Part shown: in pieces, positions 1 to 12,346 of the stretch
Numbering within the stretch: the first letter of the stretch is position 1
Layout: each line of letters begins with the position of its first letter
Assembly: GCA_040755715.1 (NCBI GenBank)
Contig: JBFLXN010000014.1
Location: forward strand, 1-12,346
DNA from: Candidatus Edwardsbacteria bacterium
GTDB lineage: Bacteria; Edwardsbacteria; AC1; JBFLXN01
DNA: 12,346 nucleotides
Reading direction: 5' to 3'
Notes under the pieces: model-generated
Database searches by the model: none
Seen by the model: the letters and a program-made list of their open reading frames with translations, nothing else
What the model was told of the DNA's origin: nothing
Translations under genes and position numbers: made by a program

Positions 1-331
1 CGAAATCCTCGGTTTTTACTAAAATTGCACCTCTTTGGATAAGCTTCGATATAATTTCATAATTTTTGCTGCCACCTTTCAGTCCCTCCTCAAGTATCTT
101 CTGGCCCATAGCCCCATCTGCAACCATTCCATCCTGATACACCTTAAAGTTAGCCACCTCTAATTTCTCAAAATATCTGGCTATTGAATCCCAGAAGCCA
201 GAGATAGTTTCTCTATGTTGCTTCCAAAACTTCTCCCCGAAACCTGCAATACCTCTTTTGTCCACCTGCCTAGCAATACTTCCAAGATCGGCACTCATGT
301 GGATGATTGGAACATAGATTAATTTTCGCAT
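1..331 (-). CDS. hypothetical protein, N-terminal 110 codons (gene continues past the left edge)
   Basis: This ORF is absent from the supplied track because it has no stop inside the window. Manual minus-strand translation from the ATG at 331-329 gives MRKLIYVPIIHMSADLGSIARQVDKRGIAGFGEKFWKQHRETISGFWDSIARYFEKLEVANFKVYQDGMVADGAMGQKILEEGLKGGSKNYEIISKLIQRGAILVKTEDF, open to position 1. The ATG overlaps the TAA of the upstream ORF (TAATG). No family recognised. Confidence 0.5.
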   Translation of the reverse strand, partial: MRKLIYVPIIHMSADLGSIARQVDKRGIAGFGEKFWKQHRETISGFWDSIARYFEKLEVANFKVYQDGMVADGAMGQKILEEGLKGGSKNYEIISKLIQRGAILVKTEDF

Positions 332-597
332 TATTTTCCTAATCCTTTAGCTTTTATTAAAAGTTCTGCTGTCTGTTTACGCAGGGTAGATATGGTTCTG
401 CAATTTTTACAATCCTCGTTTTTCTCATCATATTTTTCACAAGACAAAAGCATCTCCACCTCTTTCTTTAAGTGACTCGCCCTTTCGGCTTTATCAGTTA
501 CTGCCTTTGCCTCGTTGATATCGCGGGTCAATTCTTTAATGGTCCATTCCCTTTTTAGAAATATAGGGCACTTTATCTCTGGTTTTGGTTCTGCCAT
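331..597 (-). CDS. small hypothetical protein (88 aa, 4 Cys, charged and helical-looking)
   Basis: Track ORF. Its ATG at 597-595 overlaps the upstream TGA by 1 nt (TGATG), and its TAA overlaps the next ATG (TAATG), so it is translationally coupled on both sides. No family recognised. Confidence 0.55.
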   Translation of the reverse strand: MAEPKPEIKCPIFLKREWTIKELTRDINEAKAVTDKAERASHLKKEVEMLLSCEKYDEKNEDCKNCRTISTLRKQTAELLIKAKGLGK

Positions 598-1502
598 CAG
601 CGTTTAACCTCTGGGATCTGTTTTTCGCTTCCTAACTTCTGCAATCTGACCTCCAATATATTATTATGGTATCTTCTCACAATTCCTTCGCTGTCAACTT
701 TTGCTGGAAGAGAAACCTCTTCATAGTAGTTAGATTCGGGAGTTTTACAAGAGACGGTAAGTCTATCTTCATCTACCCCTAATAATATATCCTCTTCCTG
801 GGCACCTTTTAATTCCATAATGATGTTTAGATGGTCGCCTTCATCAAAGATATCCAATAACAATTCCTCTTTATCTTTTTTTAATTTATCCCCTCCGATA
901 ATCCACCAGCTAAACATAACTTTCTTTCCTGTGGATTCATCAATCTTACATCTTTGGAATACTAAAACCGGAAAACCTATCAGCTCTTGAGCCGTTGGAT
1001 TAATAATATTTCTTACCCTGTGGAGAATATCCATATGATTTGGCGCATTATAGCTGTGAGCCAATTCGTCAATGGTGGCATGTCTATTTTGCCAGACAAA
1101 AAGAAGTATATTTTGGCTCTCAGGATCTAACTCTTTGGCAATCTTATCTATTCCCTCTTGATTTATTTCCAATAGGCTTCTTTCAAATATCTTATTTTTC
1201 CACATCTCTACATCTTTTACCATAATCCAGGCCTTTGAAGCAGTTGCACCGCCTTGATTTCTATAAGAGATACAAAGGGCGTCCTTACTTCTTAATGTAA
1301 AACCCCTCTGTTGAATGCTGATTCCTTTTATATTTTCTAAGGACGTCTGGAATATAATCCTCGCCGGCTGCCAAAGAAAAAGCCTCAGGTTAGTCAGGTA
1401 CAGATGCCCTGGTTTCCAGCCGCTGCGTAGATTATCTTTGTAAAAACCCGGATCGCTTAGTATAACCTCTTCATTCGCTTTTAATTCAGGCTTATTTTTC
1501 AT
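597..1502 (-). CDS. PH/GRAM-like domain plus possible winged-helix module plus C-terminal alpha-crystallin (Hsp20) domain fusion protein
   Basis: The track ORF is 597-1598, and the codon at 1598 is TTG. The N-terminal motif GWKPGHLYLTNLRLFLWQ resembles bacterial PH/GRAM (G-x-LY-x-T-x-x-RL). The C-terminus, LLLDIFDEGDHLNIIMELKGAQEEDILLGVDEDRLTVS...VRRYHNNILEVRLQK, reads as an alpha-crystallin domain. The start is uncertain. ATG 1502 gives an 11-nt overlap with the upstream ORF. ATG 1565 is preceded by GGAAAG. TTG 1598 is the longest option. Confidence 0.8.
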   Translation of the reverse strand: MKNKPELKANEEVILSDPGFYKDNLRSGWKPGHLYLTNLRLFLWQPARIIFQTSLENIKGISIQQRGFTLRSKDALCISYRNQGGATASKAWIMVKDVEMWKNKIFERSLLEINQEGIDKIAKELDPESQNILLFVWQNRHATIDELAHSYNAPNHMDILHRVRNIINPTAQELIGFPVLVFQRCKIDESTGKKVMFSWWIIGGDKLKKDKEELLLDIFDEGDHLNIIMELKGAQEEDILLGVDEDRLTVSCKTPESNYYEEVSLPAKVDSEGIVRRYHNNILEVRLQKLGSEKQIPEVKR

Positions 1503-1767
1503 CTTTTCTGTAGTGTTTATAAGTAAAACCTGGATGTCTTGCACCACCGGGTTTGTTATCTTCATATTCTTTCCGTTTATATTTTGACCTTTTATCAAAT
1601 TCTACCCCTGTAGAATGTATTATCTGGGCATCTTCACCAGTTGAGTATTTAACCGAATATCTTCTTCTCTTTTTTGCCCACTCATCCCAGTCCATAGCTG
1701 TGGAGTGTCTCACCTTTGTGCCGCGGCCAGTAGAATACCCTGAAGTTTTAGGTGTCTTGGATTTCAT
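1492..1767 (-). CDS. small basic protein with four [HY]-S-T-[GA] repeats (hypothetical)
   Basis: ATG at 1767, preceded by AAGGGATAA (SD-like). The ORF fills what would otherwise be a ~180-nt gap in a compact operon. The motif occurs four times as GYSTG, HSTA, KYSTG and HSTG. Its codons differ mostly at wobble positions (CAT/TAC/CAC/TAT; TCT/TCA/TCC/TCT; ACA/ACT/ACA/ACT; GGG/GGT/GCT/GGC), which argues for selection at the protein level. Confidence 0.55.
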   Translation of the reverse strand: MKSKTPKTSGYSTGRGTKVRHSTAMDWDEWAKKRRRYSVKYSTGEDAQIIHSTGVEFDKRSKYKRKEYEDNKPGGARHPGFTYKHYRKDEK

Positions 1768-1782
1768 TTATCCCTTTTTTTC

Positions 1783-2355
1783 CTATTTCCATTTCCAATT
1801 ACAGGTCTTCCAATCATCAGGCACAGAAGGATGGTCTAAAATTCCTGTTTTCCCGCCTGCGTTATCAGTCTCCTTGACTACGTCCTCCTCGTCGACTTTG
1901 GGACTTTGCGGGGCAGGGGACGGAGCTTCCTCACATGGTTCATCTTGAGAGGAATCGAGGGCTTCAGCTGCTTCTTCCTCTTCTACGACCTCTTCGAAGA
2001 CTATCCCGCATTTCGGACAAACTGTTGTGTTTTCTTTTACGGCTGTGCCACAGCTCACACATTCATATCCTTCTATCTCTTCTACTTCTTTTTTGGTCTC
2101 TTCAGTGCCCATACTACCTCCAAGTTCTTTCTCGCCCTCGCCTTCGCCCTTAACCTGTTCTTCTCCCAAGGAAGTAATCCTGTATAAAGCAAACCTACCG
2201 GGCGAAAGCCTTTCTATATACCCTTTCTCCCACAATTTTTTGCATATATCATAGGCATAATTTATTGTAACCCTTAAGTTCCCGGCAATAGTTACGGTAT
2301 TTCCCTGTTTAATTTCCTTAAATTTTTCTAAAATCTTTTTCTCGTTAGGGGTCGT
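1783..2355 (-). CDS. winged-helix DNA-binding domain plus acidic linker plus zinc ribbon protein (putative regulator); non-canonical or damaged start
   Basis: The track ORF 1783-2235 begins at an internal TTG. The frame stays open upstream to the TAA at 2361-2359. That upstream part encodes the rest of a complete wHTH: TPNEKKILEKFKEIKQGNTVTIAGNLRVTINYAYDICKKLWEKGYIERLSPGRFALYRITSLGEE. A perfect SD, AAGGAGGT, lies at 2368-2361, with ACG 6 nt downstream at 2355-2353. There is no ATG, GTG or TTG between 2358 and 2236. The zinc ribbon is CVSCG-x11-CPKCG. Confidence 0.6.
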   Translation of the reverse strand, partial: TTPNEKKILEKFKEIKQGNTVTIAGNLRVTINYAYDICKKLWEKGYIERLSPGRFALYRITSLGEEQVKGEGEGEKELGGSMGTEETKKEVEEIEGYECVSCGTAVKENTTVCPKCGIVFEEVVEEEEAAEALDSSQDEPCEEAPSPAPQSPKVDEEDVVKETDNAGGKTGILDHPSVPDDWKTCNWKWK

Positions 2356-2405
2356 CTTTTACCTCCTTATGTTCTTGGTTATTATTCTATCCTTATGCCA
2401 ACATT

Positions 2406-2858
2406 TCAATATTCGATAGATACAGATTTCCACTTCTTTTCGGCTCTACTCCCTTTGCCTTGGCGCCCTACTTTTTCTTGAAGAGTAGTCAATCTATTGG
2501 GTCCACGATTACGAATTACCAACCACGACCCACGAGTAGGTCCAGATAATTTAATCTCGGCTCGAGAGTGAGGTCCGAGTTTTGTCTCCTCTAACACATC
2601 ACCTTCTAAGGTAAGCCTTCCATTTTCATCTATCCTGCCTTGACTTTCCATCATAGTAACTTCGAACTGTGAAAGGCGCGGGACCATGCTTTGCAGATGA
2701 TAAACAATCAAATATGGCCACCGCATGCTTCCTTTAATCCTTACTACTTTAATTCCCACTGGGCTTGCGAGATTTAATCCCGCTTCCCTTCGAATATTCG
2801 AAGGAATAGATAATCTACCCTCTTCATCAATTTCGCTAAATCCTTTTAACAGCGGCAT
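2406..2858 (-). CDS. tandem AbrB/SpoVT/MraZ-like (swapped-hairpin) domain protein, putative DNA-binding
   Basis: There are two copies of the D-x-x-GR-L/I signature. The first is [21 protein letters not shown] and the second is [21 protein letters not shown]. The ATG at 2858 overlaps the Hsp70 gene end by 23 nt. Confidence 0.7.
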
Positions 2859-4602
2859 CTTTTGTTTCTATCTTTAGATTTCTCTTTATCCGTTTAAACG
2901 CATTATAGACAATCTCAACCAGCTTTCTTAATTCATCAATTTTTACCCTGGTCTCTTTATATTCACCCTTGGATAAAGTTGTCTTTATTGCCAGGATTAG
3001 TTTCTCTATTTTTTCTACATCTGACCTATCTATTAGACCCTCTCCTTCTTCCAGAACCATCTCTGCTGCTTGTATCATACTTTCCGCTCGAATGCCCATT
3101 TGAATCTCTTCTTTTCGCTTTTGGTCTTCCTTGGCATGAATTCGGGCATCTTCTATCATCTCGTTAATCTGGTCCTTGGTCAGCCGGGAAGAAGAACTGA
3201 TCTGGATACTTTTTTCATTATCGGTATGTAAATCCAAGGCTCTGACTTGTAAAATCCCATTGGCATCTATATGGAATGTCACCTCAATCTGAGCTTCACC
3301 CCTTCGACCGGGTGGAATATCAGTAAGCTCAAACTTACCCAGACTTATATTATCGAAGCTCAGGAATCTCTCTCCCTGCAAGACATGGATATCGACCTGA
3401 GTCTGGTTATCTTTAGCTGTCGTAAATATCTGACTGCTGGATGTAGGAATGGTGGTATTTCTTTCTATGATCTTAGCAAATATCCCTCCCTCAGTCTCAA
3501 TTCCTAAAGAAAGGGGAGTAACGTCTAACAATACCACATCTTTTATTTCCCCAATCAAGATATTGGCTTGAATTGCTGCGCCAAGAGCCACTACCTCATC
3601 CGGATTTATATCCTTATAAGGTTCTTTGCCCAGAAGCTCTCGAGCGAGCTTTTGCACAGCAGGCATTCTGGTGGAGCCTCCTACCAAAACTACCCTGTCT
3701 ATCTGGCCGGGGTTGAGCTTTGCATCAGAAAGGACCTGTTTAGTAGGCTCTATCATCTTCTCTAATAAATCCCTGGTTAGCTCTTCAAACTGCTCTCTAC
3801 TCATAGTCAGATGCAGATCCATATCTTGTATGAGAAATGGGATTCTGATATCTGCAAACCTTTTTGTGGAAAGTTCTTTTTTTGCCTTCTCTGAAGCCTC
3901 TTTCAACCGCTGTAAAGCCACCCTATTTCTTCTTACATCCACTCCATGCAACTTCTGAAAATTATCAGCCAAATAATCCATTATCCTCTGGTCCCAATCA
4001 TCTCCGCCAAGATGTGTATTTCCCCCTACTGCCTTCACCTCAAACACGCCATTGCCCAACTCTAAAATAGATACATCGAAAGTGCCTCCACCCAAATCCC
4101 ATATTAGAATATAGTGTATATCCTGCTTGTGTAAGCCGTAGGCCAGGGAAGCAGCAGTAGGTTCATTTATAATCCGCATTACCTCTAATCCGGCTAAGGC
4201 GCCTGCCTCCATAGTCGCCTGGCGCTGGTTATCATTAAAATATGCAGGAACTGTAATTACTGCTTTCTCTATTTTCTCGCCCAAATAATCTTGCGCATCT
4301 TCCTTGACCTTACGAAGGATTAAGGCCGAAATCTCTTGGGGGGTAAATTTTCTCTCGTCAATCTCTACCCCATAATCAGTGCCCATCCGACGTTTAATAG
4401 ATGCAATGGTACGTTCTGGATTTGCAACTGCCTGGGTTCTGGCAAGATTGCCTATCAGCTGCCTCCCTCCATCGGCAAAGGCAACCACTGAAGGAGTAAG
4501 CCTTCCGCCTTCAGCATTGGGTATAATCTCAGGCCTCCCATTGTTTATAAAGGCGGCTACTGAAAAGGTAGTGCCTAAATCTATTCCTATTACCTTACTC
4601 AT
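2836..4602 (-). CDS. dnaK: Hsp70/DnaK-family chaperone paralog (588 aa)
   Basis: Hsp70 motifs present: [56 protein letters not shown] substrate-binding domain ([13 protein letters not shown]) and a helical lid are also present. The true start is the ATG at 4602-4600 ([12 protein letters not shown]), in an ATGA overlap with the upstream stop. The 34-aa extension in the track lies inside the upstream gene. Confidence 0.93.
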
Positions 4603-5672
4603 TTGGCTACCTGGGCTATTTTCTTCTTTAACCGTGGGCTGACCCAGCCGCAGTTTACGCAACCCTTTTCTAATAGCTCTAAGGCGTTTGCCTTTTTTCC
4701 GCATTGAGGGCAGGCTTCTGTTCTTTCTCTAAATGATATGATTCGGGTAAGCGCCCTCTCCCACTCATACATTCCCTCTCCTGAAAAAGAGGCAACCTTT
4801 CTTTGAGAACCACCTTCACCCAGCCCTTGCGCGCAAGAGCTGGGTTCATATATTACGTCAAAGACCTTTTTCTTCTTTAATACCGGGCTCAAATTCCTTA
4901 CATCTATAGCAGAACCTAATATCTTTTCTGAAGGGACTTCAAAAGCCAATCTCTTTTCAAAATCATACCACCAGCATAATCTCTTATTTGTTATATACAG
5001 ATGACCGGGCTTCCAGATACCATCTGATGAGGCCATATGCCAGGCCTTGCCCTTGTGAGTAATCGTTTCTCCTTCTGTCAGGAAATCTAATGTCTCTTCC
5101 TCATATTCGGGTAGAATAAGGTTTTCATCAATTATAAGTCCGCCTAACTTTATCGCCTCTTTTATAGACTCACCTAATTTATCTATCTCCACAGACCGCA
5201 GACGCGCTAATCTATCATCCTTAAGAATAAGTAAGAGCGTATCTTCTTGTATCAAGAGCCCCTTTATCTCATCTAAAGAGGTTTGAAACATCACTTCATT
5301 AAGCTCTTGATTCATGAGCAGCAGTCTTTTATCAGTTAAATAAATCTGCCCCGGTCTCCAACTAACATAGATTCCTTTGGCATAAAAAAAAGAGCCCAAC
5401 ATCTTAAGTTTAAGCTCTTCTCCCTGGATTAAAGAAATCTCTTTTTTAGCTCTATTATCTTTTTCCCAGGCGCGAATCTTCTCATCCCATGCCTTCATCA
5501 TGCCATACTCGAGCATAGTCTCCATGCCGGCCAGGGCGGCTCTTAAATTAACACCGATTAAAGGGATGCCCGCCACAGAGATGATAATGTCAGCGTTGAT
5601 CACCAACCCCTTATCCAGGACCCTATCCAATAAATCAACCAATGTGACCCGTGCATCTCTGGTTGGCTCCAT
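4599..5672 (-). CDS. GvpA/J/M-family (GvpM-like) N-terminal domain fused to two PH/GRAM-like domains and a C-terminal zinc ribbon
   Basis: The N-terminus [49 protein letters not shown] matches the gas-vesicle structural core (LxxVxDRxLDKGxV...). Two PH-like motifs follow, [15 protein letters not shown] and [16 protein letters not shown]. The C-terminus is [25 protein letters not shown]. The ATG at 5672 is preceded by AAGGAG. Confidence 0.85.
4815..4848. repeat. second copy of the 26-bp palindrome (one mismatch), flanked by direct ttca, inside the GvpM-like fusion CDS
   Basis: cccagcccttgcgcgcaagagctggg lies at 4819-4844, with ttca at 4815-4818 and 4845-4848. Element plus one flank is 30 nt, or 10 codons, so it is in frame. 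It encodes [10 protein letters not shown]. Confidence 0.7.
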
Positions 5673-5691
5673 ATGTCGCTTCGCTCCTTTA

Positions 5692-5733
5692 TCAGAATTC
5701 AGAAGTCAGATTTTTCTATCCTCTGTCCTCTGT
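5692..5733. promoter_or_regulatory. two sets of tandem heptamers in the 85-nt gap upstream of the GvpM-like fusion gene
   Basis: TCAGA occurs at 5692, 5699 and 5706, with a 7-bp period. cctctgt occurs twice in tandem at 5720-5733. Confidence 0.25.
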
Positions 5734-5757
5734 TACCTGTTTTTCTATGCTTTGGCT

Positions 5758-6522
5758 TTAGGCGAATGAGTATGGTGGCCAGGGGCCTGTAAATCGAACG
5801 ATCAACCCATTTTCTTTTTTAATCTTTTCTAAAACTTCGCCAAGCCTTTTGACATTTTCCTTAGCAACCAAACAGGATAAGTTCATGATCATCTGTAAGT
5901 TCTCATCTACTTTTTTAGCCTTATCTATATGAATATCAAAAACTTCTTTCTTTATCCGAGCATAAAAGTCCTTAAAATATTCATCGGCCTTTTTTCCCAT
6001 CTCTTTCCTTAATAGATTCTTTATCTTCTCTTCATACATATAGGCTGTGCCCGGTGGTTTAGACTTCAACTCCTCTTTCAAATTCTTAATCTCTGGGCTA
6101 TCTTCGGCTATTCTTTCAACCATAACCTTGGGATCCCATAAAATCTGGACTCCATATTCTTCTTTGCCCTTGACTTTATTTAATCTTTCTTTTAGATTCT
6201 GGTAATCTTTTTGCAGCCACTTTTTCATATTTTCTTTCGGGTCTATGCCTTCTTCGCCAATAATTATGGTATCAAATGCCAGAGGCAGGACAGTACCAAA
6301 CCTCTGCCAGGCATAATCCACTACCTTCTGGTGAGTCATTACCCAACCTTTTACAATATCTTTATCTTCTGATTCGTAGGGGTGAGGTTCACAGTTGTGA
6401 ACAACGGCTGAAATTTCCTGGTATGGAAGAGTGTAAACGTTGCTCCCATCAATTCCAATCTCACCCAGGCTTACCTTTTCGTTGCCATCAGCTATGCAGT
6501 AGAGATATATACCGTCGTTCAC
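5758..6522 (-). CDS. gvpF: gas vesicle protein GvpF/GvpL family
   Basis: N-terminus GIYLYCIADG, then VLPLAFDT, then C-terminal FTGPWPPYSFA, which together are typical of GvpF/L. The preferred start is the GTG at 6522-6520. It forms a GTGA overlap with the gvpK stop and is preceded by AAGGAGA with an 8-nt spacer. The track's ATG at 6549 lacks an SD and overlaps gvpK by 31 nt. Confidence 0.88.
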   Translation of the reverse strand: MNDGIYLYCIADGNEKVSLGEIGIDGSNVYTLPYQEISAVVHNCEPHPYESEDKDIVKGWVMTHQKVVDYAWQRFGTVLPLAFDTIIIGEEGIDPKENMKKWLQKDYQNLKERLNKVKGKEEYGVQILWDPKVMVERIAEDSPEIKNLKEELKSKPPGTAYMYEEKIKNLLRKEMGKKADEYFKDFYARIKKEVFDIHIDKAKKVDENLQMIMNLSCLVAKENVKRLGEVLEKIKKENGLIVRFTGPWPPYSFA

Positions 6523-6836
6523 TTGGCTGTCTCCTTTATTTTTTCCCATCTCGTGGGATTAGCTATTTTATCTATAACATCGTTGACTATATTATCTAAA
6601 CCATCTCTCACTGATTGAACTGCCTCACCAACCCCTTGTTCCTCTTTTATATGCTCTATTGCGACGTCGAGTTCCTTAAGCGCTCTACCCAGACGTTCTA
6701 TCTCTTCTTCGTTTAGGCTTCCACCCTCCATTCGCTTTACCGCCTGAAGTTTAAGGGCATCTCTGATTATTTCAACCAAGGCAAGCACAAGGCCTAAAAC
6801 ACCGCTTTTAAGATTATCTTCATTGATATCTATCAT
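6519..6836 (-). CDS. gvpK: gas vesicle protein GvpK
   Basis: GLVLALVEIIRDALKLQAVKRMEGGSLNEEEIERLGRAL matches the GvpK core as I remember it. The ATG forms an ATGA overlap with the upstream stop. Confidence 0.88.
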   Translation of the reverse strand: MIDINEDNLKSGVLGLVLALVEIIRDALKLQAVKRMEGGSLNEEEIERLGRALKELDVAIEHIKEEQGVGEAVQSVRDGLDNIVNDVIDKIANPTRWEKIKETAK

Positions 6837-7420
6837 TTTTCTATTTTTACTTCTAAAATCCCATTCTTGTATGTTTTTTCTAGTTTTCCTTTAGATTCGC
6901 AGGGTAGTTTTAATTGCTGATGGTACTTGCGATCAGGAATATCTACTGATATTGCAAGGCTGTCTTTGACTAAATCAATTTTTATATCCTTTTCTTCAAT
7001 GCCTGGTATTTCAGCAATCACTTTAATATGATCTTCCTCATCAAAGATATCCGCTGGCCGCTCTTGAGGTGTTGGAGGGGGTGAGGGTTTTACTTCTGGT
7101 CTCTGTTTAGCAAAAGGTTTTCCTCTAAAGGCCCTTCCTCTTATGCCCGGAGGGATGCCGCCGGGGATACCCGAAGGCCTTCCTTCAGCTCTTTTCAAAG
7201 GGGCTTCTTTTATCTTACGCTCCACCTCTTTATCAACCTCCTTAAGCCTCTCTTTGAAAGCCGGGGATTTCTCCAGGCCTTTAATTAATCCCCCTAATCC
7301 GGGAATTACCTTGCCCAGACCTTTAAGTATTCCTCCTGCTACACTTTCAGATTCTTTTTCTCCCGCCTCGGGCGGGACATCCTCTGGTCGCTTTTTGTCT
7401 TTATCTTCTTTACCGGTCAT
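6833..7420 (-). CDS. Hsp20/alpha-crystallin domain protein with a long Gly/Pro-rich N-terminal region
   Basis: The C-terminus reads as an alpha-crystallin domain: DIFDEEDHIKVIAEIPGIEEKDIKIDLVKDSLAISVD...LEKTYKNGILEVKIEK. The N-terminal region carries G-rich repeats (GGILKGLGKVIPGLGGLIKGLEK, GIPGGIPPGIRG). The ATG at 7420 is preceded by AAAGGTG. Confidence 0.85.
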   Translation of the reverse strand: MTGKEDKDKKRPEDVPPEAGEKESESVAGGILKGLGKVIPGLGGLIKGLEKSPAFKERLKEVDKEVERKIKEAPLKRAEGRPSGIPGGIPPGIRGRAFRGKPFAKQRPEVKPSPPPTPQERPADIFDEEDHIKVIAEIPGIEEKDIKIDLVKDSLAISVDIPDRKYHQQLKLPCESKGKLEKTYKNGILEVKIEK

Positions 7421-7468
7421 ATTCTACACCTTTCTTTAGCTTTACTTGTTAAGCTGCTAGCTTATTTC

Positions 7469-7819
7469 TCATTCTGCCTTTATATCTTTTGCCTTGGCGC
7501 TTACCCAGCCACACCAGGGACAGCCCTCATCAAGTAATTCTTCTGCCAGAACTTTTTTGCCGCACTGTGGACAAAGTTCTTTACCCTTCATGGCTTCTTT
7601 CCAGGCTTCTGTTTCCACATTAGTCCCTGATGGAAACTCAAGGCCATACTTTGCTGCTGTCTCAAAAGAAGCCAGGGCTGCCCTTATCTTAATTCCCAAA
7701 AGCTCTACTCCGGCAACAGATATGGCGATATCCGCATTAATCACCAGGCCTTTGTCTAAAACCCGGTCTATGACATCAACCAAAGTAACACTTGCATCTT
7801 TTGTCGCTTCTATTGCCAT
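7469..7819 (-). CDS. gvpJ: gas vesicle structural protein, GvpA/J/M family (GvpJ-like), with a C-terminal zinc ribbon
   Basis: [53 protein letters not shown] is the gas-vesicle core, and it looks J-like from memory of the haloarchaeal GvpJ sequence. The C-terminus is CPQCGKKVLAEELLDEGCPWCGWVS. The ATG at 7819 is preceded by AAGGAGG with an 8-nt spacer. Confidence 0.88.
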   Translation of the reverse strand: MAIEATKDASVTLVDVIDRVLDKGLVINADIAISVAGVELLGIKIRAALASFETAAKYGLEFPSGTNVETEAWKEAMKGKELCPQCGKKVLAEELLDEGCPWCGWVSAKAKDIKAE

Positions 7820-7832
7820 TTCTATTGCCTCC

Positions 7833-8225
7833 TTACCCCGCTACTACACCTTGGCCTTTACATTTGGGGCAAGCCACTGGATGAGGTTTGCGCGGATATA
7901 CCCCACTTCCATTGCAAGTGGTGCATTTTTTAGAAGGTGTCATCCTTGTAACCACCCCTACCCCACCACAGGCTAAACAGTGTATGCGACTTGTAGTATA
8001 TGGGTCTATTCCCTTGCCACCACAAAAATTGCATTTCATTGTCGGGCCAATAATTCTCACCTTACCTTTTCCTAAACACACCTGGCAATCAGAAAGCTTA
8101 GATAAAAGCTGAAAAGGATCTTTTCCTATTCCATTACAAAAGGCGCATATAACTTCCACTTTATTTTTTTCTATTCGCCTAAGCTCCTCAGGTGCAATCG
8201 TAGCCCATTTTGGTTTTTTAGCCAT
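7833..8225 (-). CDS. DnaJ-type cysteine-rich zinc-finger protein with six CxxCxGxG repeats and no J domain
   Basis: Six repeats: CAFCNGIG, CQVCLGKG, CNFCGGKG, CLACGGVG, CTTCNGSG, CPKCKGQG. No HPD motif is present. The ATG at 8225 is preceded by GAGGAGGTG. Confidence 0.85.
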   Translation of the reverse strand: MAKKPKWATIAPEELRRIEKNKVEVICAFCNGIGKDPFQLLSKLSDCQVCLGKGKVRIIGPTMKCNFCGGKGIDPYTTSRIHCLACGGVGVVTRMTPSKKCTTCNGSGVYPRKPHPVACPKCKGQGVVAG

Positions 8226-8262
8226 CTTTCACCTCCTCACCTTCGGCTGGTCGGGGTTAGCA

Positions 8263-8320
8263 GTTATTAGTTATAAGTTATGTATTTTTAACTGATAACT
8301 TATAACCCGTAATCCATAAC
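8263..8320. promoter_or_regulatory. inverted arrays of GTTAT/ATAAC half-sites with 7-bp phasing (operator-like); includes a 12-bp perfect inverted repeat and a candidate promoter
   Basis: gttat occurs at 8263, 8270 and 8277; ataac occurs at 8295, 8302 and 8316. The perfect inverted repeat is gttataagttat (8270-8281) paired with ataacttataac (8295-8306), with a 13-nt loop. On the minus strand, TTATCA (8298-8293), a 17-nt spacer and TATAAC (8275-8270) resemble -35 and -10 boxes. The site lies in the 100-nt gap upstream of the zinc-finger gene. Confidence 0.35.
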
Positions 8321-8325
8321 TTTTT

Positions 8326-8901
8326 TTACCTTCTCTTCTTCTTGGGTTTCCCTTTGGTCTCTTTAGTCTTCTCCTTTATCTCTTCTTTTTCCTCCAAATC
8401 TTTTATGCGCTTCTTAAGTTCTGCCTCTTTTGTCTTAAAATCATCCCCAGTTATTTCAGCTCTCTCAAAACGCATTTTAAGCTCGAGGATTTCTTCTTCT
8501 AAGGCGACCTTAGGGTCTTTTTCTTCTTCAGCCTGCGCTCCCACTGCGGCAGTGATTCCTTTGACCATCTCTACTGGTTGATATGGCGCTGAAATTAGCT
8601 TACCCAAGAATCTAAATAACCCTATATCCTTTGGCCGTTCCAACTTGCGCCTTCTAATGGCTGGTACATTAGATATTCCCCATTTCTTAGTTGGCATCAT
8701 ACCCCAATATTTGGGAATAGTAATATTGGGTTTAGCGCTTACTAGGGGAATAGGTTTAGAAACCAAGGGAATCTCTTTACTAACCAGCGGAATAGCGCTT
8801 GCTACTTGGGGCATAGCCTTACTAACCGATGGTAAGCTACCCGCAGTAAAAGGAATGAATTTGGCTTCTTTCTTGTTAGATTTTTTCTTTTTGGGAGACA
8901 T
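8326..8901 (-). CDS. GvpG-like protein with an N-terminal [ILM]P-x-V-[SA]-K heptad-repeat extension and a Lys-rich tail
   Basis: The C-terminal half, LFRFLGKLISAPYQPVEMVKGITAAVGAQAEEE...LEEEILELKMRFERAEITGDDFKTKEAELKKRIKDLEE, parallels the canonical GvpG at 11444-11728. Compare LELKMRFERAEI here with LELQMRFEMGEV there. The N-terminal repeats are LPSVSKA, MPQVASA, IPLVSKE, IPLVSKP and IPLVSAKP. Confidence 0.78.
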   Translation of the reverse strand: MSPKKKKSNKKEAKFIPFTAGSLPSVSKAMPQVASAIPLVSKEIPLVSKPIPLVSAKPNITIPKYWGMMPTKKWGISNVPAIRRRKLERPKDIGLFRFLGKLISAPYQPVEMVKGITAAVGAQAEEEKDPKVALEEEILELKMRFERAEITGDDFKTKEAELKKRIKDLEEKEEIKEKTKETKGKPKKKRR

Positions 8902-8930
8902 CTTCCCTCCGCTCTTTTTTATATTTATAT

Positions 8931-10895
8931 TTATCCATATATTTCCTTAGAAAAATCCTTTAATCGGTCAATACCTTTGATCTGATAAGGGAAAAGCGGC
9001 AGCTGACCAATTTGATATTGCGAAGACCTTTCCCTCTCTATTTCCTGGATAATCTTAATCTGCTCACCTCTTTTTGACTCGCAAAAATTACATCTAGTTT
9101 TCGGAAGAATCATATTAACCAGAATATAATGAGAGGGGATGTTAAGTCGCTTAAGGTTCTCAAGGAGGCCGTCCATCTCACTCTTGCCCATAGCCTCTGG
9201 AATACCTACAACCACAAATTGACACCTCGCCGGATCTGTGAGAATCTCCTGTATTTTTCTCACCTTCTTAGAAAACTCTATCATCTCTTCAGCCTGTTTG
9301 GCCAATCGTACTATCCCCTTATATTTTATAAGTAATTTAAATATTGCATTTAGCCACTCCCTGGCAACCTGAGGCATCTCTAGAAACCGCAATAGGTGTC
9401 CTGTAGCTGCTGAATCTAAGATATATATATCAAATTTTCCTCCATCTATAAATTCCACCACCTTAGCTAAAGCCATAATCTCATCCAAACCGGGAGGAGT
9501 AAGTGAGATAAGTTCCTCTAAAATCTCCCTATCGAACTTAACATCCACTCCACCTCCGATAAATTTACTAAATACCTCGCTTATTTGGTCTTTATAATCC
9601 TTTTTAAAATTCTCAAGCAACTTCAAAGCATCTATCTCCAGGGCAAATAGATTATTGGGGACAGTCTCCTTCGGGGACAGTCCCCCTATCTGAGTGAGAT
9701 TATCTCCAATAGATAGACCAAAACTATCGGATAGCGAATGGGCAGGGTCGGTAGAAAAGACTAAGACTTTTTTAGAGGGGTATTTTTTGGCCATACTAAG
9801 TGCAGTGGCTGAAGCTATGGATGTTTTACCCACCCCACCTTTTCCCCCAAATATATATAATATAATGCCTTTCTCTATTAATTGAGGCAATTTAATAATA
9901 GAGAAAATCTTAGACTTGAAATCAAAAGGTTTCTTTCCAATGGGAAGGCGATGTGGCTTCTCTTCAAATAAAACCTGGGCATATTCCTTTAGTCGATCCA
10001 TCCCTCTGATTTGATATGGAAATATCGGTATCTGATGAAGTTCGAGATTTGCGAATTTTTGCCTGATTATATCTAATTCTTTCTTTTGTTCTTTCTCTTC
10101 CTTAGAACAAAAGGGACACCTGTTTTGACTACTTTTAATTTGATTGACGATAATAGATTTCACTGAAATTCCATATCCTTTTAATATCGCCAACAACCTT
10201 TCTGTCTCTTCTATAGCCAAGGTCTCGGGTTTAGTGACAGGTATAAATTCTGTTGAATCGCGGTTCTTTAGTAACCGACTTACTCTATCCACGTCGCTTT
10301 TCACCATCTCTAAAAATTCATCAGCGTCGTCTTTTTTGTATTTGCCAGCAAAATGGCTGGCTAAAAATCTATGCTTAGATTGCATCAAATCTAAAACTTC
10401 GACCCACTTTTTCATCTGAAGGGGTAAACCTAAAAGCCTTATGGTATGTCCTGTAGGTGCGGTGTCCAAGATGATTAAATCGTATTTCTCTTCTCTTAAG
10501 ATATTAGCTATTTTTATAACCGCCATTATCTCATCTAACCCTGGAATAGAAAGGGAAAAGAAATTCTCTATATCTTGCCTGTCGAAATAAGTTCCTCTCT
10601 CAACGATCTTTTTCATCACCAAATCATATTTCTTTTTAAAAAGAGAGGCCTCTTCCTCAGCTTTTATTTCTAAAGCCCAAAGATTGTTTAAATCTTTTAT
10701 GGGTGTAATGGTATTACCAACAGTATAGCCCAAACTATCACCCACTGAATGAGCAGGGTCACAGGATACAATCAAAATCCTCTGCTTGGGATAATGTTGG
10801 GCTAAATAAAGGCCAGTAGCAGTCGCTGATGTAGTTTTTCCGCAACCCCCCTTTCCACCAAAGATTATTAGACGCCGCTTCTCGCTGATTTTCAT
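8931..10895 (-). CDS. tandem-fused ArsA/Get3 (TRC40)-family ATPase (654 aa, two homologous halves)
   Basis: Half 1 has GGKGGCGKTT, CDPAHSVGDSLG, DTAPTGHTIRLLGLP and a CPFC motif. Half 2 has GGKGGVGKTS, TDPAHSLSDSFG, DSAATGHLLRFLEMP and a CNFC motif. Each half ends in a matching tail: IPIFPYQIRGMDRLKEY in half 1 and LPLFPYQIKGIDRLKDF in half 2. ATG at 10895. Confidence 0.92.
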   Translation of the reverse strand: MKISEKRRLIIFGGKGGCGKTTSATATGLYLAQHYPKQRILIVSCDPAHSVGDSLGYTVGNTITPIKDLNNLWALEIKAEEEASLFKKKYDLVMKKIVERGTYFDRQDIENFFSLSIPGLDEIMAVIKIANILREEKYDLIILDTAPTGHTIRLLGLPLQMKKWVEVLDLMQSKHRFLASHFAGKYKKDDADEFLEMVKSDVDRVSRLLKNRDSTEFIPVTKPETLAIEETERLLAILKGYGISVKSIIVNQIKSSQNRCPFCSKEEKEQKKELDIIRQKFANLELHQIPIFPYQIRGMDRLKEYAQVLFEEKPHRLPIGKKPFDFKSKIFSIIKLPQLIEKGIILYIFGGKGGVGKTSIASATALSMAKKYPSKKVLVFSTDPAHSLSDSFGLSIGDNLTQIGGLSPKETVPNNLFALEIDALKLLENFKKDYKDQISEVFSKFIGGGVDVKFDREILEELISLTPPGLDEIMALAKVVEFIDGGKFDIYILDSAATGHLLRFLEMPQVAREWLNAIFKLLIKYKGIVRLAKQAEEMIEFSKKVRKIQEILTDPARCQFVVVGIPEAMGKSEMDGLLENLKRLNIPSHYILVNMILPKTRCNFCESKRGEQIKIIQEIERERSSQYQIGQLPLFPYQIKGIDRLKDFSKEIYG

Positions 10896-10949
10896 CTGCG
10901 TTCATCTGATTTCCGGTGATATCTACGTTTATCTACGTTATTCTACTTC
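10891..10949. repeat. 10-bp-phased direct repeats spanning the gvpO end and the ATPase start
   Basis: ttcatctg occurs at 10891 and 10901. atctacgtt occurs at 10921 and 10931, with a degenerate ttctacttc at 10941. The first pair duplicates the ATG context (CAGATGAA twice on the minus strand). Confidence 0.4.
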
Positions 10950-11207
10950 AACTGTCTCGGTATCCGCCCTCTTTCTTAACCTTGTCCGATTAAATTCCAT
11001 TACATTGCCATCGTCATCCAAAATTACCTCATAGGTGGCTAAGATATCCATCTGGTCAGGAATGGAGTGCTTTTCTATCATCTCCATAGTAACCTTCCAG
11101 CCTTTTTCATCCTTAGCCGCCCCTAAAGTAGTAGAAAGTTCCAGTCCTGTAAACCTACTCAATTCCTCACGAGCCTTCTCAATAATCTGTTGCATTGTCT
11201 TCGCCAT
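10938..11207 (-). CDS. gvpO: gas vesicle protein GvpO
   Basis: The pattern AREELSRFTGLELSTTLGAAKDEKGWKVTMEMIEKHSIPDQMDILATYEVILDDDGNVMEFNRTRLRKR matches my recollection of the GvpO family (...G-W-x-V-x-x-E-x-x-E...P...D-x-LA-x-YEV-x-LD..G.......R). The ATG is preceded by AAGGAGGT with a 7-nt spacer. Confidence 0.82.
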   Translation of the reverse strand: MAKTMQQIIEKAREELSRFTGLELSTTLGAAKDEKGWKVTMEMIEKHSIPDQMDILATYEVILDDDGNVMEFNRTRLRKRADTETVEVE

Positions 11208-11232
11208 CTTTTATACCTCCTTTTTTAAAAAG

Positions 11233-11439
11233 TTATAGTTTCCTTTTAATCTTAGCCCCACAGGAAGGGCAGAATGCATAACCATAAATATACCGCCACC
11301 TTGCCCCACATTCCTGACATTCGATATTTAAGGGTTCTCCGCATTCTGAACAAAACCGCAGATTCCCCCAGGTTACACTTCCGCATCGAGGGCACCTAAA
11401 TGCACCTTTTGGTAGTGCTGGTTCTATTCTTTCTTCCAC
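11233..11439 (-). CDS. double zinc-ribbon protein (68 aa)
   Basis: Four CxxC pairs: CPRCG, CSECG, CQECG, CPSCG. The GTG start at 11439 is preceded by GGAGGTG with a 5-nt spacer. Confidence 0.72.
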   Translation of the reverse strand: MEERIEPALPKGAFRCPRCGSVTWGNLRFCSECGEPLNIECQECGARWRYIYGYAFCPSCGAKIKRKL

Positions 11440-11443
11440 ATTC

Positions 11444-11728
11444 TCACCTCCTCTCCTCTTTGTATTTCCTGATTGCCTCTAATCTTTCCAGGATTTTTCC
11501 TTCTTTCTTTTTATATTCCTCTTCGTTCACCTCGCCCATCTCAAAGCGCATCTGAAGTTCTAGCAACTCTTCCTGCACTTTAGACTCATCGGTCACCTCA
11601 GTCTCGGCTGTCTCCTTTAGTTTATTTCCGATCCATACCACCCCCTTTATAGGCAACAAAAAAGGCAATAAAATATCGGTTAATCCAAAACCCGATCCTT
11701 TAGAACCACTCTCAGGCTTTTCCTTCAC
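11444..11728 (-). CDS. gvpG: gas vesicle protein GvpG
   Basis: LTDILLPFLLPIKGVVWIGNKLKETAETEVTDESKVQEELLELQMRFEMGEVNEEEYKKKEGKILERLEAIRK fits the GvpG pattern. The present start is the GTG at 11728-11726, in a GTGA overlap created by the inserted element. See the findings for details. Confidence 0.85.
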   Translation of the reverse strand: MKEKPESGSKGSGFGLTDILLPFLLPIKGVVWIGNKLKETAETEVTDESKVQEELLELQMRFEMGEVNEEEYKKKEGKILERLEAIRKYKEERR

Positions 11729-12020
11729 CCCGCCCTTCCTTTCCTTGCAATGCCAAGTCTAGATTTTAATCTTGCCAAACCACTTCCGAACTTCTTCAAG
11801 CTTTTTTCCCTTTCAAATGCCACATCTTTAGATCTATAGGCCTCAAAATATATTAACTCCACTGGTAACATCTTTCTAGTTGAATATATCTTTCCTTGCT
11901 TATGCTCCATTAACCTTTTTTTCAAGTTATTCGTACATCCTATATAAATCCAGTCTTTAACTTTACTACTGAGTAAATATATATAATGCCAATTAGGCTT
12001 TTTAGGAAGGGCGGGGTTCA
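11724..12020 (-). mobile_element. putative miniature autonomous element: TTCA | 12-bp TIR | GIY-YIG ORF | 12-bp TIR | TTCA
   Basis: The plus strand has ccccgcccttcc at 11728-11739 and its perfect reverse complement ggaagggcgggg at 12005-12016. Direct ttca copies flank these at 11724-11727 and 12017-12020. The ORF start (xTG) and stop (TGA) both fall within the flanking TGAA copies. Confidence 0.5.
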
Positions 12021-12021
12021 C
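11725..12021 (-). CDS. small GIY-YIG nuclease family protein (98 aa)
   Basis: WHYIYLLSSKVKDWIYIGCTNNLKKRLMEHKQG...ELIYFEAY...AFEREKSLKK carries the GIY/YIG motifs, the conserved Arg, the Glu and the RE-x-x-x-K signature. Start is the GTG at 12021 and stop is the TGA at 11727-11725. The ORF is bounded by 12-bp inverted repeats. Confidence 0.85.
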   Translation of the reverse strand: MNPALPKKPNWHYIYLLSSKVKDWIYIGCTNNLKKRLMEHKQGKIYSTRKMLPVELIYFEAYRSKDVAFEREKSLKKFGSGLARLKSRLGIARKGRAG

Positions 12022-12176
12022 CCTGCCCTTCCTTTTCTCGCAATGCCAAGCCTATATTCAATTTGGCTAAACTGTTTTTGCATTTCTTTAAAATCTTTGC
12101 CCTGCCCTTAAGCTTAAAATGTGGGATTTACCCAGCCCTTGCGCGCAAGGGCTGGGTTTAGGAAGGGCGGGGTTCA
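12017..12176 (-). mobile_element. degenerate, internally deleted tandem copy of the GIY-YIG element
   Basis: The TIRs are ccctgcccttcc at 12021-12032 (one mismatch) and ggaagggcgggg at 12161-12172, with flanking ttca at 12017-12020 and 12173-12176. The copy keeps the first 7 codons (ATG AAC CCC GCC CTT CCT AAA = MNPALPK). It also keeps the last 11 codons plus stop (RLGIARKGRAG*), which differ from the intact copy only synonymously. Its interior is disrupted by stops and a 26-bp palindrome. Confidence 0.45.
12127..12160. repeat. 26-bp perfect palindrome cccagcccttgcgcgcaagggctggg flanked by direct ttta
   Basis: The palindrome spans 12131-12156 and is exactly self-complementary. Direct ttta copies sit at 12127-12130 and 12157-12160. 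It is GC-rich in an AT-rich context. Confidence 0.7.
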
Positions 12177-12346
12177 TAACTTTCTCCTTCAAGTACAATT
12201 ACTAATTCTACAAAGTTACATGGAGGTACAGGTCCAACGTATTTGAACTTTATCCTTCCATCATAAATTGTGCTTAGTCTATCTACTAATCTATCAAATT
12301 CTTCCACCCGGGGCTTTTCTACCAAGAAAGCTAAGTTTGTTATCAT
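12158..12346 (-). CDS. gas vesicle protein GvpF/GvpL family, C-terminal 62 codons (gene starts beyond the right edge)
   Basis: LAFLVEKPRVEEFDRLVDRL...IKFKYVGPVPPCNF parallels the FTGPWPPYSF end of the other GvpF/L gene. The last codons (YEPRPS) and the stop lie inside inserted repeat sequence. Confidence 0.82.
   Translation of the reverse strand: MITNLAFLVEKPRVEEFDRLVDRLSTIYDGRIKFKYVGPVPPCNFVELVIVLEGESYEPRPS

Follow-up and report, generated by a model that had tools for sequence, protein, structure and literature searches.

How does a 26-bp palindrome come to lie in frame within a protein gene, between two copies of the same tetranucleotide? The question is raised by a stretch of 12,346 nucleotides from a metagenome-assembled genome (MAG) labelled Candidatus Edwardsbacteria (GenBank assembly GCA_040755715.1, contig JBFLXN010000014.1, positions 1 to 12,346), which is called the window below. 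The palindrome, referred to here as PAL, lies at window positions 4819–4844, reads CCCAGCCCTTGCGCGCAAGAGCTGGG and interrupts a gas-vesicle gene. A second copy, CCCAGCCCTTGCGCGCAAGGGCTGGG, stands near the right end of the window, close to a 289-bp element whose only gene encodes a GIY-YIG nuclease. Our results indicate that PAL is probably a mobile unit made of nothing but two ends and a member of the same family as the GIY-YIG element.

Results

Each PAL consists of two 13-nt arms. An earlier description of the window, made from its letters alone (the sequence-only reading), had reported the first palindrome between direct TTCA copies, and both can be read directly in the window. It had also reported a perfect copy at 12131–12156. 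This copy is indeed perfect and has TTTA flanks, but it is not identical to the first one: the two differ by one base, the A at 4839, which is an arm mismatch in copy 1. On the mRNA strand the mismatch becomes a G–U wobble, and a 12-bp hairpin is retained (−21.4 kcal/mol, z = −3.0). In 200 shuffles of the window no match to the perfect palindrome was found at up to three mismatches; the real copies have at most one. Copy 1 and one flank together make 30 nt, in frame in the open reading frame (ORF) 4599–5672 on the minus strand. Translation and orthologue alignment agree with the claim that this adds ten residues between VIYE and GGSQRK of a 357-residue fusion protein.

The alignment comprised 16 orthologues of the fusion protein (54–100% identity). 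The ten residues are present in two of them, the window protein (P0001) and P0003 (357 residues, PSPCAQGLGE). In the other 14, VIYE or VIYN is followed without a gap by the residues after the insert, and a length of 347 residues is found in the close relatives. On the gene strand, the empty site of P0002 (locus L004) reads ...GATATA-TGAA-AATAG, with a single TGAA. The filled sites read ...ATATA-TGAA-(26 bp)-TGAA-GGTGG in the window and ...ATATA-TGAA-(perfect 26 bp)-TGAA-GGAAAT for P0003 (L002/L003). Thus the site shows an insertion polymorphism with a target-site duplication of the type made by MITEs (miniature transposable elements bounded by inverted repeats).

It is hardly credible that PAL is a native functional hairpin of the gene or its mRNA, or an assembly artefact. 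The stable RNA fold would suit a native hairpin, but PAL is absent from 14 of the 16 orthologues, the same sequence with duplicated flanks occurs at unrelated loci, and Rfam at gathering scores assigns no part of the window to any family. As to an artefact, PAL is present in independent assemblies. The Logan assembly of SRR29635779 is 100% identical to window positions 98–11727, insert included. In a second MAG contig (L007, JBFLWW010000004.1), which matches the window at 97.6% identity over 4.2 kb, the insert is again present and shows the mismatch of copy 1, and JGI contigs likewise carry it. An assembly artefact is therefore excluded. L007 is labelled 'Nitrospirota bacterium MAG042', whereas the fusion protein of the window is identical to one listed for a 'Candidatus Edwardsbacteria' MAG, so one of the two labels is probably wrong. 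The genome scan described below gives one PAL only in MAG042, and this genome may be without the PAL copy at gvpG.

Was the site in the fusion gene filled once or twice? In a neighbour-joining tree of the orthologues (500 bootstraps) P0003 lies outside the clade that joins P0001 with the insert-less P0002, P0004, P0005, P0006 and P0007. Of the 500 bootstraps, 459 join P0001 with insert-less proteins and leave P0003 outside; in 12 the two are sisters. The genes of P0001 and P0003 are 76.8% identical in DNA and their PALs are identical at 25 of 26 positions; at this gene identity, one difference or none in 26 nt has a probability of 0.009, provided that PAL is not under constraint. We favour two independent insertions at the same TGAA. 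It is doubtful that a single ancestral insertion was later lost precisely several times, by slippage across the hairpin from one 4-bp repeat to the other. Palindromes between short direct repeats are prone to precise deletion, and the site and flanks are identical in both lineages, which would suit a single event. However, as P0001 is nested among insert-less proteins, this scenario needs at least three precise losses, and both the tree and the near-identity of the two PALs speak against it.

Regarding the position of the ten residues in the protein, the sequence-only reading had placed them in the linker between the second PH-like domain and the zinc ribbon. The AlphaFold2 model, which is of low confidence (mean pLDDT 62, and below 50 for residues 253–295 including the insert), puts residues 276–285 between strands 270–275 and 292–297, ahead of helix 301–316. 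The insert would then be a loop within the second PH-like domain, before the C-terminal helix of that domain, and on this low-confidence model the inter-domain linker was rejected as the insertion point.

PAL is widespread. The pattern used for scanning, CCCNGCNCTTGCGCGCAAGNGCNGGG, fixes the GCGCGC centre and most of the arms, so the diversity of the family is underestimated; the flanks are not part of the pattern, and the duplication statistics are therefore unbiased. The scan gave 24 stretches in contigs of a one-genome-per-species set (from Omnitrophota, WOR-3, Paceibacterota, Scalindua, Verrucomicrobiota and others) and 104 in metagenome contigs, and 99 distinct sites were left after removal of duplicates. 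A scan of viral contigs gave no match, nor did blastn of the region 11700–12200 against plasmids. In contigs with less than 50% GC, exact 4-bp direct flanks are present at 24 of 51 sites, where about 0.2 would be expected by chance; above 50% GC such flanks occur at 2 of 48 sites. All 26 flanks in the pooled set are T-N-N-A (TGAA 13, TAAA 9, TTAA 2, TTGA 1, TGCA 1), with a purine before the flank at 22 sites and G or C after it at 19. It follows from this tabulation that the target is R-TGAA-S or, more loosely, T-N-N-A. In the sequence-only reading the reconstructed targets in the fusion gene and at gvpG (ATATA-TGAA-GGTGG and AGTTA-TGAA-GGAAA) were said to have TATGAAGG in common. Both do contain it, and TA-TGAA-G recurs at 4 of the 13 TGAA sites, the one in the window among them. 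As a strict target TATGAAGG was rejected because the wider set of sites shows the more general R-TGAA-S or T-N-N-A. It is important to note that the data would suit an element of 28 bp and a duplication of 2 bp just as well, since A always stands before CCC and T always after GGG.

The 26-bp members of the family include variants with the centres GCACGC and GCGCCC. In the window, a sequence centred on AAGCTT (CCCTGCCCTTAAGCTTAAAATGTGGG, 12100–12125) adjoins PAL copy 2 and hints at palindromes with still other centres. Candidatus Scalindua rubra (L014, 3796–3821) has a PAL variant whose two arms have changed in a compensatory way (CCCCGCACTT...AAGTGCGGGG). It is flanked by TCAA and stands in frame close to the C-terminal end of an open frame of 758 codons, whose C-terminal sequence resembles the ArsA-like gas-vesicle ATPase of the window. 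The 26-nt core is also seen in high-GC soil contigs (e.g. L033, L051, L056, L071, L079, L085, L114, L132–L134); there it is embedded in longer hairpins, either CCCAGGGTTG-core-CTACCCTGGG or CCG-core-CGG, or stands before T-runs (L046, L100, L111).

At 20 of the 26 duplicated sites the surrounding open frame has 150 codons or more, and PAL is read in all three frames (one of the peptides is TQPLRARAG). Read from the sequence, PAL with one flank (30 nt) has no stop codon in any frame, except for TGA in the flank. From this length and the stop-free frames it follows that an insertion adds ten residues. MnmA of an Omnitrophota MAG (L028) is a second test case. P0241 (388 residues) carries the PAL residues; its 92% identical relative P0242 (378 residues) and five other orthologues are without exactly these ten, and the solved MnmA structures lack them as well. 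In-frame PAL copies without duplicated flanks were noticed in a GltD-like gene (L059, 1361–2836) and at L008, L010, L017, L029 and L061.

The larger element in the window has the inverted repeats ACCCCGCCCTTCCT and AGGAAGGGCGGGGT and one ORF only, whose 98-residue product matches Pfam GIY-YIG (3.7e-14). The closest solved relatives are the UPF0213 proteins 1ZG2 (4.2e-05) and 1YWL, and the protein is a stand-alone GIY-YIG domain of about 100 residues of this type. UPF0213 proteins of the 1ZG2/1YWL type are minimal prokaryotic Slx1-like GIY-YIG domains (PMC1564403), and Slx1 is a structure-selective nuclease (PMC7017083). Homologues of the element protein are 95–100 residues long and come mostly from MAGs of Omnitrophota and the candidate phyla radiation (CPR). 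Down to 55% identity, the N-terminus [MVL][NS]PA[LFP][PR] is found in 94 and the C-terminal GRAG in 89 of the 120 homologues listed. Since the gene fills the whole element, the inverted repeats encode both termini of the protein: the ends (TGAA)CCCCGCCCTTCCTAA...AGGAAGGGCGGGG(TGAA) give the MNPALP start and the KGRAG end. Full-length members are 283–289 bp long, and their sole gene encodes a 96–98-residue Slx1-like nuclease of the UPF0213 type.

The GIY-YIG element occurs in five unrelated operons, each time precisely at the (A/G)TGAA start codon of the gene that follows and in the same orientation. Its ORF starts at the host start codon and ends with the TGA of the right flank copy. At the other side of the same junction the host gene regains a GTG start from GGGG+TGAA, and a ribosome-binding-like AGGAAGG stands a few bases upstream of it, within the right repeat. 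To judge from its letters, the right end AGGAAGGGCGGGGTGAA could thus carry a candidate ribosome-binding site together with a GTG start for the downstream gene. In none of these five independent contexts is another gene carried along with the element. The Logan contig stops precisely where the right flank copy of the GIY-YIG element lies (position 1 of L001 is window position 11727); a break at the element boundary is expected if the element is repeated in that sample.

What connects PAL with the GIY-YIG element? The sequence-only reading had taken PAL for a derivative consisting of ends only, from a match of its arm to the end of the window's GIY-YIG element at 10 of 12 aligned positions. Direct reading confirms the match, and two further results agree with the derivation. 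The first is a size series. Among the fetched loci there are members of 26, 48, 49, 50, 69, 124, 152 and 283–289 bp, with the ends CCCNGCNCTT...AAGNGCNGGG and exact T-N-N-A flanks; the shorter ones keep the outer 9–10 nt of each end, CCCNGCCCTT. The 152-bp member stands in the window next to the full-length element. It aligns to both ends of the latter, of which it retains the inverted repeat on the 5' side and roughly 85 nt on the 3' side, and PAL copy 2 is nested in it at TAAA. The second is an exchange within a scaffold of about 150 bp, which contains four motifs of the AACTTACG type, is bounded by inverted ends of its own (TAATGAG...CTCACTTA) and has either PAL or a GIY-YIG gene in the centre. 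PAL occupies the centre at 11 loci (L035, L040, L045, L062, L068, L070, L086, L101, L102, L112, L119); at L152 (5150–5620) the same slot holds a 77-residue GIY-YIG gene bounded by CCCAGCCCT...AGGGCTGGG (CCCAGCCCTCTA...TAGAGGGCTGGG). As read from these sequences, the exchange at L152 would be the most direct link between PAL and the GIY-YIG genes. Because of the size series and the exchange in the scaffold slot, PAL is best read as the ends-only extreme of the family.

Two side observations belong here. At L012, L042 and L073 PAL lies at TGAA in the left half of a related scaffold. In the window (12017–12176) and at L152 (10002–10059) an ORF-less derivative, of 152 and 50 bp respectively, is in tandem with a full-length GIY-YIG element, with one TGAA in common; this architecture in two unrelated genomes suggests that insertions have occurred repeatedly at the flank of an element already in place.

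Could PAL be a footprint, left by the excision of a former full-length GIY-YIG element, instead of a unit that moves by itself? PAL does consist of both element ends joined, and a 23-bp variant at L073, CCCAGCCCTT-AGG-AAGGGCGGGG, resembles directly joined ends of the GIY type. However, the identical 26-mer is found at dozens of unrelated sites and lineages, including its GCGCGC centre, which is lacking in the GIY-type repeats. Moreover, the insertion that preceded such an excision would have been 293 nt long (289 bp and a 4-bp flank) and would have shifted the frame in MnmA or in the gvp gene. We consider a footprint quite improbable.

The features discussed are listed in Table 1. The window holds a gas-vesicle cluster, in which all long genes are on the minus strand. 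At the right edge there is a GvpF/L fragment, and GvpG (11444–11728) and GvpO belong to the cluster. It also encodes a tandem ArsA-like ATPase, a second GvpG-like protein, a GvpA/J/M-type zinc-ribbon protein, an Hsp20-like protein, GvpK, GvpF/L, the 357-residue fusion protein and Hsp70. Two of the proteins, 597–1598 and 4599–5672 (both on the minus strand), have PH/GRAM-like modules with the motif W(K/R)PG(H/Q)(L/I)Y(L/I)T(N/D). In one of them the modules are fused to a GvpA/J/M domain and a zinc ribbon, in the other to an Hsp20-like C-terminus.

Table 1. Features of the window and GIY-YIG elements at other loci (window positions unless a locus is named)
Feature	Position	Strand	Remark
Host gene, 357-residue fusion protein (GvpA/J/M-type domain, two PH/GRAM-like domains, zinc ribbon)	4599–5672	−	Residues 276–285 come from the insert
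Left TTCA target copy (TGAA on gene strand)	4815–4818		One TGAA at the empty site, two at occupied sites
PAL copy 1, one arm mismatch	4819–4844		Absent from 14/16 orthologues and from the empty site L004
Right TTCA target copy	4845–4848		From comparison of empty and occupied sites
gvpG	11444–11728	−	Original ATGAAGG start is the insertion target; GTG start now from GGGG+TGAA
Full-length 289-bp element	11728–12016	−	TTCA flanks 11724–11727 and 12017–12020
GIY-YIG ORF, 98-residue Slx1-like nuclease	11725–12021	−	Start and stop codons in flank copies and inverted repeats
152-bp ORF-less derivative of the GIY-YIG element	12021–12172	−	TTCA flanks 12017–12020 and 12173–12176
Degenerate 26-nt PAL-like sequence CCCTGCCCTTAAGCTTAAAATGTGGG, AAGCTT centre	12100–12125		Family D1, 66% identity to PAL
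PAL copy 2, perfect palindrome nested in the ORF-less derivative	12131–12156		TTTA flanks 12127–12130 and 12157–12160
GIY-YIG elements on start codons	window 11724–12020; L135 3001–3297; L140 3001–3297; L147 10001–10294; L152 10001–10381		Five junctions occupied: gvpF-like/gvpG, argD/argF, pilM/pilN, LMWPc/rpiB, rpmF/plsX

Discussion

Our results on the palindrome in the gas-vesicle fusion gene are best explained if PAL belongs to a family of very small elements with terminal inverted repeats, as a non-autonomous member that is made of ends only. We give this explanation a probability of about 0.7. It brings together the insertion polymorphism, the duplicated flanks, the many copies across lineages, the tolerance of in-frame copies, the common termini and the size series. 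Accordingly worded as a mechanism, two 13-nt arms joined back to back would form the whole element. Elements of the family would insert at T-N-N-A, mostly at R-TGAA-S, leaving the tetranucleotide on both sides. An insertion within a gene would add ten residues, and it would persist where the protein tolerates the loop. We infer that the GIY-YIG protein mobilises PAL, which it would do in trans by acting on the paired ends. A nuclease of the structure-selective Slx1 type might recognise the hairpin or cruciform made by the paired ends and cut at the T-N-N-A/CCC junction. Recognition of a hairpin or cruciform is a reasonable guess, since enzymes of this type are structure-selective.

Several observations weigh against this explanation. 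At 27 low-GC sites there is no exact duplication; one mismatch at five of them and membership of the scaffold family at 11 account for only part of these sites. The 48 sites in contigs above 50% GC carry the same core, with two exceptions all without duplications, in longer hairpins. In the GltD-like protein of L059 the PAL residues align with the native DSNFKDKQFI of the solved glutamate synthase small chain. The two proteins differ there by only one residue in length, so PAL seems to replace native sequence and not to add to it. As to the link with the GIY-YIG element, the arms of PAL differ from the repeat of the window's element at positions 4 and 11 of 12, and tblastn of the GIY-YIG protein against the PAL loci (about 125 outside the window, with the few kb fetched for each) found the window copy only. 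Finally, no DNA transposon or transposase with a GIY-YIG catalytic domain is known.

The last two points would be less of a difficulty if PAL and the GIY-YIG elements were both moved by an unlinked transposase, for instance a DDE enzyme of the piggyBac/IS1380-like or IS5/PIF-like kind, and the GIY-YIG gene were a passenger or an addiction module. The 4-bp T..A duplication and the CCC...GGG termini recall piggyBac, with its TTAA target and CCC/GGG ends. On the other hand, the GIY-YIG ORF fills the element exactly and takes its termini from the inverted repeats, and these termini are conserved in 89–94 of 120 homologues down to 55% identity. No other gene accompanies the elements in the five operon contexts, and no candidate transposase was noticed in any locus, though without a systematic search. 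Taken together, an unlinked transposase appears unlikely.

More tentatively, and with odds that we put a little below even, the parents of about 290 bp may be autonomous DNA transposons, with the Slx1-like GIY-YIG nuclease of 96–98 residues as their sole protein and PAL as its minimal substrate. Such parents would insert at the (A/G)TGAA start codon of a gene within an operon and take over its start codon and ribosome-binding site. In return, the host gene would receive a replacement from the right end of the element, namely the ribosome-binding-like AGGAAGG and a GTG start. Selection would have favoured the 30-nt stop-free form of PAL, because this form can persist inside genes of compact genomes in several candidate phyla. 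If this is true, no smaller autonomous transposons would be known, the parents would be the first DNA transposons to depend on a GIY-YIG enzyme, and their architecture would be suited to slotting into operon junctions without polar effects.

If PAL is indeed mobile, then with 26 bp and two ends only it would be the smallest kind of mobile DNA that bears a clear signature of insertion. It would spread inside essential genes of poorly known phyla (MnmA, PheS-like, OppD-like and gas-vesicle genes) without destroying them. Recurrent insertions of ten residues would be a hidden source of variation in protein length and of breaks in annotation and assembly of MAGs. A parent of about 290 bp with a bare GIY-YIG nuclease is a testable case for a new class of transposase, and its small size (oligonucleotide substrates and a 98-residue protein) makes direct biochemistry easy.

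Comparison with known systems

In open-access papers and bioRxiv we found no description of the palindrome, or of a GIY-YIG element with inverted repeats and target duplications; within this literature the PAL family of miniature mobile elements is previously undescribed. Several known systems resemble it in part.

Free-standing GIY-YIG homing endonuclease genes, such as the seg genes of T-even phages, are small selfish genes between host genes. Homing endonucleases combine the nuclease with a further DNA-binding domain and recognise a long, specific target; repair carries them to the same allele, and inverted repeats and target duplications are absent. In contrast, the protein described here is a bare nuclease domain of 96–98 residues, found in at least five unrelated operons within inverted repeats and duplicated flanks. 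piggyBac has a 4-bp TTAA target duplication and CCC...GGG element termini. It is eukaryotic and depends on a DDE transposase of about 600 residues; none was noticed here, though without a systematic search, and the likeness is a lead only.

REP/REPIN sequences (with RAYT, an HUH enzyme) and IS200/IS605 elements are similar to PAL in having short GC-rich palindromes, with a hairpin that is thought to be recognised by a small dedicated enzyme. REPs are extragenic, lack target duplication and go with a Y1 HUH transposase, whereas PAL is mostly intragenic (20 of the 26 duplicated sites are in long frames), has exact 4-bp duplications and goes with a GIY-YIG gene. No RAYT (HUH Y1) gene was noticed in the fetched loci, although no search was aimed at RAYT across whole genomes. 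IS200/IS605 elements use an HUH transposase and subterminal hairpins and insert beside a fixed tetranucleotide without duplicating it. In the PAL family the flanks are duplicated and variable (TGAA, TAAA, TTAA, TGCA, TTGA), and the elements have no HUH gene.

The GC clusters of yeast mitochondria are about 35 bp long on average, GC-rich and mobile in an AT-rich genome, and occur within reading frames and alongside free-standing endonuclease ORFs (PMC5726470). They differ from PAL in the host compartment and the sequence classes, frames are often disrupted by them, and no defined GIY-YIG parent with common ends is described there.

The sequence-only reading had likened PAL to the Rickettsia palindromic elements (RPEs), palindromic repeats that lie in frame in protein genes and are tolerated as extra peptide segments. 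The likeness holds for the outcome, as PAL too is inserted in frame in protein-coding genes (the fusion gene, MnmA and the 20 long frames); it is an analogy of outcome only, and no sequence relationship between PAL and RPEs was seen. RPEs are about 100–150 bp long and confined to Rickettsia, and neither an enzyme nor a clear target duplication is known for them. PAL has 26 bp, an exact 4-bp duplication and a coding relative, and it is found in MAGs labelled Edwardsbacteria/Nitrospirota, Omnitrophota, WOR-3, Paceibacterota and Scalindua.

The closest likeness is with bacterial MITEs, which are non-coding, have terminal inverted repeats and a short target duplication and occur in many copies. 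Their ends are also those of a larger coding element, and deletion derivatives of intermediate length occur. PAL agrees with this in its 99 dispersed sites and in being, at 26 bp, too short to encode a protein; its termini, flanks and size series lead up to the GIY-YIG element, which would supply the enzyme. Unlike MITEs, which are larger, it has no internal sequence, and nearly identical copies occur in several phyla. Its presumed parent differs from the parents of MITEs as well, being about 290 bp long and encoding a GIY-YIG nuclease and not a DDE, HUH, serine or tyrosine transposase. PAL is probably an extreme, coding-compatible variant of the MITE kind, and its parent possibly a new class of autonomous element.

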